A stretch of DNA of 64,000 nucleotides from Candidatus Hydrogenedentota bacterium (GCA_963668025.2 CAXXTH010000010.1:320001-384000), one strand, 5' to 3'; counted from the first letter of the stretch, positions 58,439-63,927 are shown. Made by a program: numbers and translations. The notes: a model not told the origin generated them from the letters alone.

Positions 58439-58593
58439 GATAAAGAAGCCGCAAACGACAGTGAGCTATCATATTCTGGAATAGAATGTTATTACTGCCA
58501 ACTATATGGAGTGCGGCAGCTTGCTGCCGCTTTTAATAGTACAATTCGTTAATTGTATTGCTTTTGAAGACGCTCAAGGAGAAAACCACAGAT

Positions 58594-59577: not shown

Positions 59578-59700
59578 GCAGCGGCCTTGGTGGTTATTCC
59601 GGCGGCAGGCCGCCACCGGCGTTTTACTTCGGGTGTTGCGGCGATACAACAGCATAAAACAGACACCGCGCATAACGATAGCGTAGATCCGCCCCTCTCG

Positions 59701-60477
59701 ATAGGGGTAGGGAAGACCGTTGGCCGGTCTCCCCTCCCTCCGAACCGTACGTGCAGATCTCCCGCATACGGCTCTCCAGTTGGTGGTCTTACCTCTTGGA
59801 GGATTGGCGAGCGGTTTCATAGGCTTTTGTAAGCTGAAAAGACCTATGGCCGCCAAAGTAAGCATTAGCTCAGTATTGATGGTCTGCTTATCCATCAAGC
59901 TGAACCATCGCCTTCCTTTCACCCCTTGTTTCAGGGCCGCCAACATGGGTTCCGTCCAGACGCAAGGACCGCTCGCTTCCAGTAGGGGCGGTTATCTCCG
60001 GCATGTTTAGAACTGCTTGCGCGGTTCACTGGTGACGGTTGTATTTCCTCGCATTCCGTACTCACCCATCCACCTTCCTACCGCCCTTCGCTCCACGCCC
60101 ATTACGGCGTTTCCTCGCTACTATGGCGGCTCTGACTGCCGTTGGGTGGCTTCTCGCCTGCTTACTCCCAGCGGCTCTCACTGCTTCATGTACCCTGCCT
60201 TCCTGACCATTCCGTCTCCAACCACCCCATGTTCCCCCGCCATCGCTTTTGCACACGACCCCTCAGCGTGACCGGTTATTTCTAGGCTTCGCCATTTCCC
60301 AGCAGGCTCGCCGGAGCATCAGGCCGAATCGAGTTCGTTATCCTACGGACTAGTCATTCGCCTTCCGTTGCTCTCCACCCCGCCTCGCGGCGACGCAGTT
60401 ACGGTCGGCTACAGGCCGGAGCGTGCATGCCTGAAGAGGACTCACACCTCTCGGACAGCGTACACTCGCAGTCGCAC
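59701..60477 (-). ncRNA. Group II intron, ORF-less (777 nt)
   Basis: 5' GTGCG at 60477; domain V GAGCCGTATGCGGGAGATCTGCACGTACGGTTC; domain VI ending CCCCTAT at 59701; only N- and C-terminal RT remnants. Confidence 0.9.
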
Positions 60478-60764
60478 TAGCATGGGCGTCTCGCCCATGC
60501 GCATGGCCTACCAAAAACTCTCAGCGTATGATTCTATATTGCCGCAATGTAGTATAAGCGCATTCAAGCGAGATCCGCACGTCCAAAGCGGCAGCAAGCT
60601 GCCGCACTCCAAATAGTTTCATAAAAAAGACTTAGCGTGCATATGCGGTAGCTTGCTACCGCTTTTTTTGTTCTCTTCTATTCATCTTGCCTGCATTTCC
60701 TTGTTTTGGCTTGCCAACACAGTTTTTGGAGAGCTCCGCGCATGGCCGGGACGGCCATGCTACG
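60478..60764. repeat. GTAG REP inverted pair enclosing GCGGCAGC..GCTGCCGC REPs
   Basis: (CG|)TAGCATGGGCGTCTCGCCCATGC at 60478 and CATGGCCGGGACGGCCATGCTACG at 60740-60763. Confidence 0.7.
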
Positions 60765-61156: not shown

Positions 61157-62340
61157 CAGGGCTTACGCATCTAAATTCCCAGTAAACGTAGGAGGTATTC
61201 GGGGTCGAGTGCAGCAGCGAAGCGCTTGCCCCTGAGGAAATCTTTGTTGGTCTTGTCTTTCTTGAGGAGGTTGAGTGTAATTCTCCTCAAGGAGGCGAGA
61301 TTCTGGGCGGCGTTTCTTGTTCGGGCGCGGTTGTCGTCTTCGCGAAAGATAATGTCTAGGCACCAGTGCAAATTGTTTTCCACGCCCCAGTGTCCACGCA
61401 CGGCGTGGGCGAATCGTCGTGCGTCGAGGGGCAGGCTGCTCAAGTAGTAGCGCCGCTCGATGGTGTTCTTCCCTTTTTCCTTGCGGATGGACTCGACCAT
61501 GCCGAAACTCTTGAGGCCCTTCCAAAGTCCTTTGTCCTCGAACCAGCCCAAGTCGGTGGATTGCCAGTATCGGCGGGTTTCGATGCGGCCATGCCCCTTG
61601 TCGATGGTCTGGTGGAAATCCATCCGTGTGGCGTCGGCTGTTGGCGCGCACTGGGTGGCGCAAGGGGGAACGGCGTCCTTGAAAAAGGCCTTCACTTCTT
61701 CTAGGGCGGTGGCGTGGTTGCCTTTGAGGGCCAGCACGTAGTCGGCCTGCCGTTGGATAATGTGGGAGGCGATATCCTTCTGGCAGCCCATGGCGTCCAG
61801 GGTGACGATGGCTCCCTTGAGCTTTAAGGCGTTGAGGAGTTTGGGGACGGCGGTGATTTCGTTGGATTTCTCGTCCACCTTGACCTGCCCCAGCGCCAGG
61901 CCGTGCTCGCAAGCCCATGCGCTGACGATGTAGGGGATGGCCTCCCCCTGATTCAAGGCGCGCCGCAGGGCTTTGCCGTCAATGGCGACGACCTCATCGC
62001 TTAGATTGGGGCAAATGCCCTGCACCCATTGGCCGAAGCATTCCAGAAAGGCATGGGGGTCGAGGGCGGAAAAGACCCGGTTGAAGGTGTCGTGCGAGGG
62101 GATGCCGCCGGGCAATTCCAGGAAGCCCTTCAGCCAATCCTCCCGGAGCCAGCCGAAGCGCTCCATATCCGAAAAGCTCTCTCCGCCCACGAGGGCTGAG
62201 CATAGCCCAATCACCAAGATGTCAATGAAGTTGTGCCTGCGGGTCCGGTCCATGCGGGGATCAGGCAGGCCCGCGAAACACTCGATAATAGGCTTGGGCT
62301 TGGGCAGGGATTTCTTTTCAGCGGTCATGGGGTGCTCCTT
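61157..62340 (-). mobile_element. ISAs1-family element; upstream end not visible
   Basis: Terminal ATGCGTAAGCCCTG after the transposase stop ends at 61157. Confidence 0.75.
61171..62328 (-). CDS. ISAs1-family (H-repeat) transposase
   Basis: PDPR, GIPSHDTF.RV, AIDGK.LR, KSNEITA.P, DAMGCQ, LKGN, HGRIETR, HWGVEN.LHW.LD..F.ED. Confidence 0.96.
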   Translation of the reverse strand: MTAEKKSLPKPKPIIECFAGLPDPRMDRTRRHNFIDILVIGLCSALVGGESFSDMERFGWLREDWLKGFLELPGGIPSHDTFNRVFSALDPHAFLECFGQWVQGICPNLSDEVVAIDGKALRRALNQGEAIPYIVSAWACEHGLALGQVKVDEKSNEITAVPKLLNALKLKGAIVTLDAMGCQKDIASHIIQRQADYVLALKGNHATALEEVKAFFKDAVPPCATQCAPTADATRMDFHQTIDKGHGRIETRRYWQSTDLGWFEDKGLWKGLKSFGMVESIRKEKGKNTIERRYYLSSLPLDARRFAHAVRGHWGVENNLHWCLDIIFREDDNRARTRNAAQNLASLRRITLNLLKKDKTNKDFLRGKRFAAALDPEYLLRLLGI

Positions 62341-62399: not shown

Positions 62400-63927
62400 G
62401 TAACACTTTAGCCGTCTGACGCAACCATAAGTAGCGTTTCGGTATAATATAGTTACAAGATGTTGTGGTTTTGGGCCAAGACGCCATGGCGACGGCAATA
62501 AGTGGCATTCCATTGGGACCGCTGCTCTCGGAGGAGCAAGCCCGAGCGATCTACGCATTGGGCGAAGATGCCGTGGTGTTTGCCCTGTTGGCGCAATCCA
62601 AGCTGCTGTCGGAGCAGCAGGCCGAGGCGGCGTTCACTTCCCACCAAACGCCCTCCACCCCTTCGGGCATGCAGCCAGTTTACGGGAAACCCCAGACGCC
62701 TGTGCGCGGCAAGAAAAAGCCGGGACGCAAGATGGGCCACCCCGGCAGCCGGCGCGTGCCGCCCGAACGTATCGACCGGCGTGAAACACACCGCACCAAG
62801 GTGTGTCCCGACTGCGGCGGGCCGCTGGACCGCCGCGCGGAGACCCGCACGCGCTACACCGAAGACATACCCGAAGGCATCCGTCCGGAAATCACCGAGC
62901 ATACCATTCACCGCGACTGGTGTCCGCGATGCAAGAAGAAAGTCGAGCCGGTTGTGGCGGCGGCCTTGCCGGGCGCGACCCTGGGCAACCGGGTGCTGGT
63001 CCTCAGCGCGTGGCTGCACTATGTGTTGGGCAACACGCTTTCGCAAATCGTGGAGGTCTTCGATTTCCACCTGCTTTTCCAGGTCACGCCGGGCGGGCTG
63101 CTGCACATGTGGCGCAGGCTGGCGGAGATTCTCCTGCCTTGGTACGAGGCCATTCACCAGGAAGCGCTGGACTCGGCGGTGCTCAACGCCGACGAGACCG
63201 GCTGGCGCGTGAATGGCAAGACCCGATGGCTGTGGTGTTTCGCCACCAAAGGGCTGAGCTTTTTCCTGATCGACCATTCGCGGGGGAGTCCGGCGCTCCA
63301 GCAGTTCTTCACGCGGGAATTCGCCGGAACGCTGGTGGCCGACTTCTGGGCCGCGTACAACGCCGTGGCGTGCGCCGCCCGGCAGAAGTGCCTCGTGCAT
63401 TTGTTGCGCGAACTCGAGCACGTGGAGAAATACAAATCGCCCAGCCCGGCCTGGCCCGCCTTCGCCAAAAAGCTGCGCCGCCTGATTGCCGACGCCATCC
63501 GGCTGTGGCGGCGGCGCGGCGAGCTCGAACCGGAGGCGTACGACTCGCGCCGCGCGCGCTTCGCCCGGCGCTTGCGGGACTTGTGCGATACGCCCTGGGA
63601 GGACGCCAACGCCAAGCGCCTCATAAAAAGGCTGCGCCGACACCAGGATGAACTCTTCACTTTTCTCGGCCAATCAGATGTTCCCTTCGACAACAACTTG
63701 GCGGAACGCTCCATCCGTCCTGCCGTTATCCTGCGCAAAAACAGTTACTGCAACCGCAGCGACCAAGGAGCCGCCATACAAGCGGTGCTCATGAGCGTCT
63801 TCTTTACTTTGAAAAAACGCGGGCAAAACCCCGTCTGCACCGTCTGCAACGCCCTGGTCCACTACCTCAACACCGGCCAATTGCCTCCCCTGCCACCGGA
63901 AAACACTTCAGTCGGCTAAAGTGTTAC
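62400..63927 (+). mobile_element. IS66-family element, copy 2
   Basis: Same IRs as copy 1; perfect 8-bp TSD TAAAATCC at 62392-62399 and 63928-63935. Confidence 0.95.
62465..63919 (+). CDS. IS66-family transposase, identical protein to copy 1
   Basis: ORF-track translation identical to 20426..21880. Confidence 0.95.
   Translation: MVLGQDAMATAISGIPLGPLLSEEQARAIYALGEDAVVFALLAQSKLLSEQQAEAAFTSHQTPSTPSGMQPVYGKPQTPVRGKKKPGRKMGHPGSRRVPPERIDRRETHRTKVCPDCGGPLDRRAETRTRYTEDIPEGIRPEITEHTIHRDWCPRCKKKVEPVVAAALPGATLGNRVLVLSAWLHYVLGNTLSQIVEVFDFHLLFQVTPGGLLHMWRRLAEILLPWYEAIHQEALDSAVLNADETGWRVNGKTRWLWCFATKGLSFFLIDHSRGSPALQQFFTREFAGTLVADFWAAYNAVACAARQKCLVHLLRELEHVEKYKSPSPAWPAFAKKLRRLIADAIRLWRRRGELEPEAYDSRRARFARRLRDLCDTPWEDANAKRLIKRLRRHQDELFTFLGQSDVPFDNNLAERSIRPAVILRKNSYCNRSDQGAAIQAVLMSVFFTLKKRGQNPVCTVCNALVHYLNTGQLPPLPPENTSVG

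Follow-up and report, generated by a model that had tools for sequence, protein, structure and literature searches.

The DNA analysed here, a 64,000-nt window of contig C10 from a Candidatus Hydrogenedentota bacterium genome (G000:C10:320001-384000), carries an ORF-less group II intron of 777 nt, which is very probably a non-autonomous, hairpin- and REP-homing deletion derivative of an endonuclease-less lineage outside class C. This derivative would have lost the RT and then spread, guided by its EBS1, into REP feet. The sequences show its anatomy, where EBS1 lies, that it multiplied once the deletion had occurred and that it prefers REPs, and no cognate RT gene was found in the assembly. The positions of all features, including the four copies of the element (M1-M4) and the other group II introns of the genome, are collected in Table 1.

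Table 1. Features of the intron locus and group II intron copies elsewhere in the genome (positions given without a contig are those of the window)
Feature	Position	Strand	Details
ORF-less group II intron, copy M1	59701..60477	-	777 nt; 5' GTGCG, 3' CCCCTAT; RF00029
Domain I	60179..60472	-	intron nt 6-299; RNAalifold consensus
Domain II hairpin	60138..60174	-	nt 304-340; basal pairs in consensus structure
J2/3 and domain III	60081..60130	-	nt 348-397; weak RF01998 match, kept sequence block
Domain IV with RT remnants	59778..60080	-	tblastn; blastn breakpoints against the full-length intron of G009
Domain V	59742..59774	-	nt 704-736; 5-nt terminal loop GAGAU; RF00029 alignment
Domain VI, bulged branch A at 59708	59704..59741	-	consensus fold
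EBS1	60297..60301	-	nt 177-181; UGGGA (UGGCA in M3, M4); covarying hairpin loop
IBS1 UGCUA, last 5 nt of 5' exon	60478..60482	-	overlaps base of REP stem
Candidate IBS3, first 3' exon nt C	59700..59700	-	C at +1 in 4/4 copies and most relatives
UAGGAU, earlier candidate EBS1	60340..60345	-	rejected; intron nt 133-138
REP-like hairpin GCATGGGCG-TCT-CGCCCATGC	60480..60500	.	strict pattern search
Uninterrupted inverted partner REP, CTACG foot	60740..60764	.	inverted repeat I2
285-bp REP-flanked MITE-like unit	60478..60762	.	inverted repeat I2; intron at outer edge
Copy M2	C10:250475-251251	-	99.9% identical to M1
Copy M3	C14:101912-102687	+	98.8% identical to M1
Copy M4	C19:180741-181517	+	97.6% identical to M1
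Class C family A copies	G000:C10:216973, 486186, 694486, 723431, 764543; C17:853576, 883609, 956627, 981278; and 7 more		
Class C family B ORF-less copies	G000:C10:11855-12468, C10:708441-709044, C18:555013-555623, C17:956067-956626		

Read 5' to 3', the M1 intron runs from window position 60477 (GTGCGACTGCGA...) to 59701 (...CCCTACCCCTAT). Its terminal part (59701-59776, minus strand) matched the Rfam DV/DVI model RF00029 (56.6 bits at a gathering score of 40; E 2e-9) and included the catalytic AGC, and in the consensus fold DVI had an unpaired, bulged branch A 7 nt before the 3' end. The termini GTGCG...CTAT conformed to the group II boundaries 5' GUGYG and 3' AY, and the six-domain fold was backed by covariation: the RNAalifold consensus of M1 with 24 diverse relatives included 83 pairs, 61 of them with compensatory changes, over DI and the basal part of DII. 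The terminal loop of DV was 5 nt long in all 25 sequences, and the block spanning J2/3 and DIII (AGUCAGA...CAUAGUAGC...GCGAAGG) was kept among the relatives in the consensus alignment. The Rfam models of D1-D4 left the intron class undecided, since RF01998 (60083-60165, 25 bits, under the gathering score) and RF02003 (21.3 bits) gave sub-threshold matches only. From its sequence and predicted fold, the mini-intron appears to retain the complete ribozyme (DI-DIII, DV and DVI) together with both ends of DIV, amounting to about 480 nt outside DIV.

The closest full-length relative, obtained in a search of 61 related genomes, was an intron of 1844 nt (78% identical) on contig C34 of genome G009, encoding a 447-codon RT/maturase (P0001) with the Pfam domains RVT_1 and GIIM and no endonuclease domain. 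In blastn, nt 1-591 of M1 aligned with nt 1-592 of this intron and nt 591-777 with its last 187 nt, i.e. the final 96 nt of the ORF plus DV/DVI; 1065 nt of the RT gene are missing in M1. What is left of the gene are an N-terminal remnant of about 60 codons (59887-60066, minus strand) and a C-terminal remnant of about 32 codons around GLFSL (59788-59886, minus strand). Residues 33-59 of P0001 were matched in tblastn at 81% (VWTEPMLAALKQGVKGRRWFSLMDK, window 59887-59967), as were residues 2-23.

When the 777 nt were searched with blastn against the assembly, which totals 6.15 Mb in 24 contigs and is 93.75% complete, there were exactly four full-length copies, 97.6-100% identical, and none that was partial or longer. 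All four have identical ends and one common internal deletion, while their flanks are unrelated beyond the hairpin and no segmental duplication extends past the REP; the element has therefore multiplied after the loss of its ORF. M1 and M2 differ at a single position out of 777 nt and lie at unrelated loci. An initial interpretation of the locus made from the DNA alone (hereafter the sequence-only reading) had described a 777-nt intron with intact ends and DV/DVI, its RT reduced to VWTEPMLAALKQGVKGRRWFSLMDK joined to the GLFSL end, and had taken it for an ORF-less, non-autonomous element. The RF00029 match together with the termini, the tblastn and blastn alignments and the four copies with their common deletion are all in agreement with this, and the survey of copies proposed with it returned the four minis and no copy with a full-length RT gene in the whole assembly.

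Altogether, 20 positions vary among M1-M4. All four variable DI pairs (75/112, 122/275, 126/270 and 124/272) remain paired in every copy, the last of them switching from A-U to G-C, and the DII changes of M4 are compensatory at 309/334 and 310/333 (pairing judged by eye). No variable site fell into nt 338-761 (424 nt, window 59717-60140; p = 1.4e-7 under uniform expectation), and the differences clustered in nt 75-284, separating M1/M2 from M3/M4, and in nt 309-336, specific to M4. Such clustering suggests patchy recombination, possibly with relatives now lost, and not uniform drift.

The hairpin next to M1 is a short, imperfect, high-copy palindrome with a kept GTAG head, as is typical of REPs. 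A strict pattern, CATGG[GC]CG-NNN-CG[GC]CCATG, matched 442 times over both strands of the genome, corresponding to 221 palindromic loci, and doublets of the type CGTAG-hairpin-CG-hairpin-CTACG were common. The tails were CTACG (head CGTAG) in 135 cases and CCACG (head CGTGG) in 41, with 3 more interrupted by the intron. In M1, M2 and M4, thus in three of the four copies, the insertion is 1-2 nt past a REP-like hairpin, and the tail is split exactly between CTA (or CCA) and CG; the REP of M4 is a different variant from that of M1/M2, with a TCC loop and a CCA tail. Excision of M1 gives CG/TAG-CATGGGCGTCTCGCCCATG (the slash marks the insertion point), a 21-mer that is found without interruption at 32 places in the genome. 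The predicted ligated-exon junction is ...CCCAUGCUA-CGAGAG. In Logan contigs (X1, X3, X4 and X5), which break at repeats, no joint skipping 59701-60477 was found; those of X1, X3 and X4 span the 3' junction in the filled state.

The uninterrupted partner of the M1 REP forms with it the inverted repeat I2, with 42-nt arms that are 79% complementary and consist of the REP plus CGC...CCAAAAACT. The inner 232 bp of the enclosed unit gave 42 blastn match rows in the genome, its own locus included, and the unit therefore looks like a member of a REP-flanked MITE or REPIN-like family. With TGCTAC present 1250 times in the genome and TGCCAC 2172 times, REP tails make up 176 of the 3422 TGC[TC]AC sites (5%), yet they account for three of the three matches, so pairing with EBS1 alone is an insufficient explanation for the choice of sites. 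The REP environment postulated by the sequence-only reading was thus found as described, both in the restoration of the repeat by removal of the intron and in the intact inverted partner, and REP feet proved to be the main target. The same reading had counted any copies outside REPs against itself: three copies conform to it and M3 does not.

M3 follows ...CCCTTAATTAAGGGCTGACAAGGTACTA, the end of a 160-nt flank (C14:101752-101911); five copies of this flank have that very base as their last common position and differ beyond it. It lies 14 nt past a palindrome other than REP. The ORFs upstream look, as judged by eye, like an IS630-type transposase, which would put M3 at the very end of that element. 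Two other copies of the element, on contigs C8 and C6, are interrupted at this end by the insertion of a Y1 transposase of IS200/IS605 type.

The search for EBS1 started from 80 loci encoding relatives of P0001, of which 44 had both ends placed and enough flank; 43 were kept after one duplicate flank was dropped, and together with M1, M3 and M4 they made up a sample of 46, M2 being omitted as a duplicate of M1. EBS1 was located at window positions 60297-60301 (minus strand) on account of its covariation with the exon ends: these 5 nt, directly after a kept GCCUGC, pair with the last 5 nt of the exon. Among 34 distinct EBS1/IBS1 combinations, 21 were paired at 5/5 positions, 10 at 4/5, 2 at 3/5 and 1 at 1/5, compared to 2.7% with 5/5 in cross-controls combining EBS1 and exons of different introns (binomial p 8e-25, for kin that are not independent). 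The UGGGA of M1/M2 pairs with its own IBS1 at four of five positions, leaving a G-G mismatch at exon position -4, while the UGGCA of M3/M4 pairs fully with the REP tails UGCCA and UGCUA, the latter including one G-U. EBS2 was sought in the variable loop nt 154-167 only and gave no signal there, the mean longest pairing being 4.76 with own and 4.90 with other exons.

The hexamer UAGGAU, from which the covarying EBS1 lies 39 nt further 3' in the RNA, had been the candidate EBS1 of the sequence-only reading. It does pair with AUGCUA at five of six positions, as stated there, but it had to be rejected as EBS1: among relatives with exon ends as different as CACUC, CGGUA and CCCUC it is nearly invariant (UAGGAU, UAGGAA or CAGGAU), and its U133 and G135 sit in kept pairs of the DI junction.

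The association with hairpins extended to the lineage as a whole. When any perfect stem with 6 bp or more and its end no more than 10 nt from the site was counted as a hairpin, 30 of 41 distinct 5' exons of the relatives had one, mostly at a distance of 0-6 nt. For random 45-nt windows drawn from these loci the figure was 320 of 1720 (Fisher p 1e-13, the relatives being kin and not independent). Many of these targets look like REPs of the respective genomes. An independent mini of 577 nt from another genus (L134, G134:C146:13084-13660) sits after the REP-like hairpin CATGCGCA-CGA-TGCGCATG-CCA and has the EBS1 UGGGA opposite UGCCA, with a G-G mismatch at -4.

Against solved class C RTs (7uim and 6ar1) P0001 scored 196 and 195 bits, and against the IIB RT (6me0, T.el4h) 171.5 bits, while the family B RT of the same genome reached 495 (against GsI-IIC) and 359 bits with the same IIC chains and 138 bits with the IIB RT. 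This contrast in bit scores assigns families A and B to class C and the mini's lineage not. By the bit scores against PDB chains and one DV trait, and not by a phylogeny with reference IEPs, the lineage of the mini would thus fall outside class C; the IIC identity implied by the sequence-only reading was abandoned in view of the 196 bits and the 5-nt DV loop. The best matches to the RT in plasmid records were unlabelled 'ltrA' genes with no more than 53% identity.

Class C introns (B.h.I1, GsI-IIC, E.r. IIC) insert after terminator or attC hairpins. The lineage resembles them in having no RT endonuclease domain, in its insertion directly after, or a few nt past, a stem-loop, in the short EBS1-IBS1 pairing without a detectable EBS2 and in the compact ribozyme. 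In contrast to them, its RT gave 196 bits against the 359-495 bits of the IIC RT from the same genome, its DV is IIB-like with the 5-nt loop, and the class C terminator target (a hairpin with a T-run and an IBS1 of 3-4 nt) was not found, there being no T-run and an IBS1 of 5 nt that overlaps the foot of the stem. A 5-nt DV loop and 450-700 nt without the IEP are given as traits of IIE/IIF in the relevant part of Nagy et al. (2013, PMC3753933), and the lineage shares with these classes the DV loop, the length of about 480 nt minus DIV, an En-minus IEP and the EBS1 in a DId hairpin loop. Unlike them, going by their descriptions, it had no detectable covarying EBS2-IBS2, which is located in their second DId loop (one loop, nt 154-167, was tested here); hairpin-linked sites, not among the IIE/IIF descriptions compared, are present in the mini's lineage. 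The IEP types g6, U1 and U2 are described in Miura et al. (2022, PMC8919778) as near class C and located directly after terminators. By this description they are similar as a non-C lineage behind stem-loops, the RT studied here being somewhat nearer to IIC than to IIB, but differ in that the present lineage targets hairpins of REP type, which no T-run follows. Toro and Martinez-Abarca (2013) is a source without target-site data.

The 16 copies of class C family A have a common 5' end, and each is located after a hairpin and T-run. Two of them lie directly past DVI, the 3' terminus of a family B intron, and in three cases the hairpin is of the REP type CATGGGC...GCCCATG, with Ts following it by chance. 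Class C family B has one RT-encoding copy near C10:692600-694485; its ORF-less copies, of which there are at least four (560-614 nt), match this full-length intron at about 86% identity in DI and at 100% in DV/DVI. Together with the 777-nt minis, the genome thus contains two unrelated sets of ORF-less introns.

The RVT_1 profile matched 17 family A RTs (one in a shorter, 393-aa frame), 1 of family B and 2 weak non-intron RTs. Against P0001 these were 37-39% identical, and the best tblastn identities in the assembly were 36-39%. A cognate RT for the mini was not found in the assembly (93.75% complete) with blastn, tblastn or the RVT_1 profile, so the maturase in trans invoked by the sequence-only reading was not recovered there, only the IIC RTs. 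On the scale of the phylum, 32 of 135 genomes had a match at E<=1e-10, and ORF-less derivatives were present in eight (G000, G002, G032, G073, G074, G112, G125 and G134). Their breakpoints differ while the architecture is the same, with 55-65 N-terminal and 20-45 C-terminal codons kept; the minis of G032 and G134 are also devoid of some ribozyme parts. The search for a helper in the mini-carrying genomes with P0001 at E<=1e-20 gave no RT match in G002 and G134, one broken match in G125 (33% identity), one match in G112 (40%), two in G073 (38% and 31%), only the own remnants in G032 and two contig-end fragments with 60-65% identity in G074. A cognate RT was therefore not found in seven of the eight genomes, which, for fragmented assemblies that are 82-100% complete, does not prove its absence.

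In the mechanism that we favor, members of the lineage would enter the DNA at a distance of 0-6 nt on the downstream side of GC-rich hairpins, with the 5-nt EBS1-IBS1 pairing at the hairpin foot guiding the insertion in the absence of a detectable EBS2-IBS2. After the loss of the RT, reverse splicing followed by reverse transcription would have carried the mini into further REPs, at their CTA/CG (or CCA/CG) foot, splitting G/TAG. The hairpin itself, and not the sequence only, would probably be recognised, and the RT may have been supplied in trans by a full-length relative now lost or unassembled, a resident IIC RT being the less likely source. Against this reading stand the recent mobility evident from M1 and M2 with no RT source found in the assembly, the EBS1-IBS1 mismatch of M1/M2 and the location of M3 outside REPs.

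In one alternative, the mini would still be mobile and mobilised by the resident, unrelated class C RTs of family A, a SINE/LINE-like parasitism across classes. In favor of it, M1 and M2 differ by a single nt at unrelated loci, and families A and B encode the only group II RTs of the assembly. The activity of family A is clear from its 16 copies of equal bit score, each of them at a hairpin and three at hairpins of REP type. However, these RTs are only 37-39% identical to the cognate type, and a group II IEP as a rule binds the DIVa of its own intron; the minis of G002 and G134, without any RT match at E<=1e-20, show that persistence of a mini needs no RT, and a cognate copy could be missing from an assembly that is 93.75% complete. 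We consider this helper unlikely. Still less probable is a role for the host or as a ribozyme that would maintain the copies with no RT involved, for example as splicing-only elements or through a HYER-like cleavage of REP single strands. It would fit the structure-preserving substitutions among the copies and the recurrent deletions with the same retained parts in eight genomes, seven of them without a cognate RT, and HYERs, ORF-less IIC ribozymes reported to cut ssDNA, are mentioned in 10.1101/2024.08.31.610620. On the other hand, most orphan minis are single-copy and could be relics, those of G032 and G134 are without parts of the ribozyme, and the structure-preserving changes, clustered as the variable sites are, may stem from recombination with lost relatives.

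That REP and intron moved together as DNA, for example with a REP-associated Y1 transposase, instead of by reverse splicing, is highly improbable, albeit three copies have the upstream hairpin in common and the genome has 20 Y1_Tnp matches. No REP hairpin was found within 600 bp of the Y1_Tnp genes at the 5 of these 20 matches that were checked, so a link of the REPs to RAYT was not shown; moreover, M3 has identical intron ends but no REP, M4 has another REP variant than M1/M2, the 3' flank completes the REP consensus CTA/CG, and the EBS1-IBS1 covariation is lineage-wide. The model of the sequence-only reading in its original form, a IIC-type mini-intron with UAGGAU as EBS1, drew on the 5/6 pairing with AUGCUA and on the insertion after a hairpin as in IIC. 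It retains hardly any credibility: the hexamer is kept within DI pairs despite differing exons and is refuted by the EBS1 covariation, the RT and DV are not those of IIC, and the T-run that follows the hairpin in the true IIC copies of the genome is missing. A broader possibility, to which we give a small chance, is that the orphan minis of Hydrogenedentota arise by recurrent deletions of the same type, with their fold under selection, and are, at least in this genome, still mobile without a cognate RT, be it by hijacking a class C RT or independently of RT, with the REP GTAG foot as a multi-copy homing site. If true, this would be a SINE-like cross-class parasitism, undescribed for group II introns in the literature searched.

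In the sections of Zimmerly and Semper (PMC4424553) dealing with these points, bacterial ORF-less introns are stated to be rare and nearly always to share the genome with a related IEP-encoding intron, and all lineages except class C to home to sequence-defined sites; likewise, upstream stem-loops are reported for IIC only in the part concerned of PMC7923331. The present case departs from these statements on both points, with a non-C lineage behind hairpins having a 5-nt EBS1 only and with repeated loss of the RT: a mini is found without a cognate RT in seven of eight genomes, yet two copies here differ by one base. The ORF-less introns of T. elongatus, as presented in the portion of Mohr et al. 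(2010, PMC2882425) compared, similarly proliferated within one genome, but with related RT-encoding introns co-resident, none of which was found in our assembly. The HYERs (as mentioned in 10.1101/2024.08.31.610620) are also multi-copy RT-less group II ribozymes, albeit of a different lineage. REPs have been recorded as targets of mobile elements in P. putida KT2440, where 2 of 9 copies of a group II intron are REP-associated according to the relevant passage of Tobes and Pareja (2006, PMC1525189). In both cases mobile elements land in REPs; here, in contrast, three of four copies are involved, at one defined phosphodiester bond of the GTAG/CTAC foot that is explained by EBS1 pairing. The attraction to REPs is thereby given a molecular reason, IBS1 being the kept CTAC/GTAG foot itself. 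A literature search outside subscription journals and supplements yielded neither an intron homing into a REP foot nor orphan minis of this lineage. For mobility experiments, the element offers a compact ribozyme with a core of about 480 nt and a defined structured DNA target.

Mobile elements are clustered in the region around the intron. Inverted copies of a second hairpin repeat, GCGGCAGCAAGCTGCCGCACTCCAAA, lie at window positions 58500-58533 and 60585-60618, both unoccupied. Full-length relatives have inserted into hairpins of this type, cut at ACTC/CAAAG, both in G009 (L044) and in MAGs of Acidobacteriota (L060 and L122). Two long ORFs, at 61171-62328 (minus strand, 385 aa) and 62465-63919 (plus strand, 484 aa), resemble IS transposases by eye. 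The GC skew, looked at for assignment of the leading and lagging strands, was too weak for this over 0-600 kb of contig C10.
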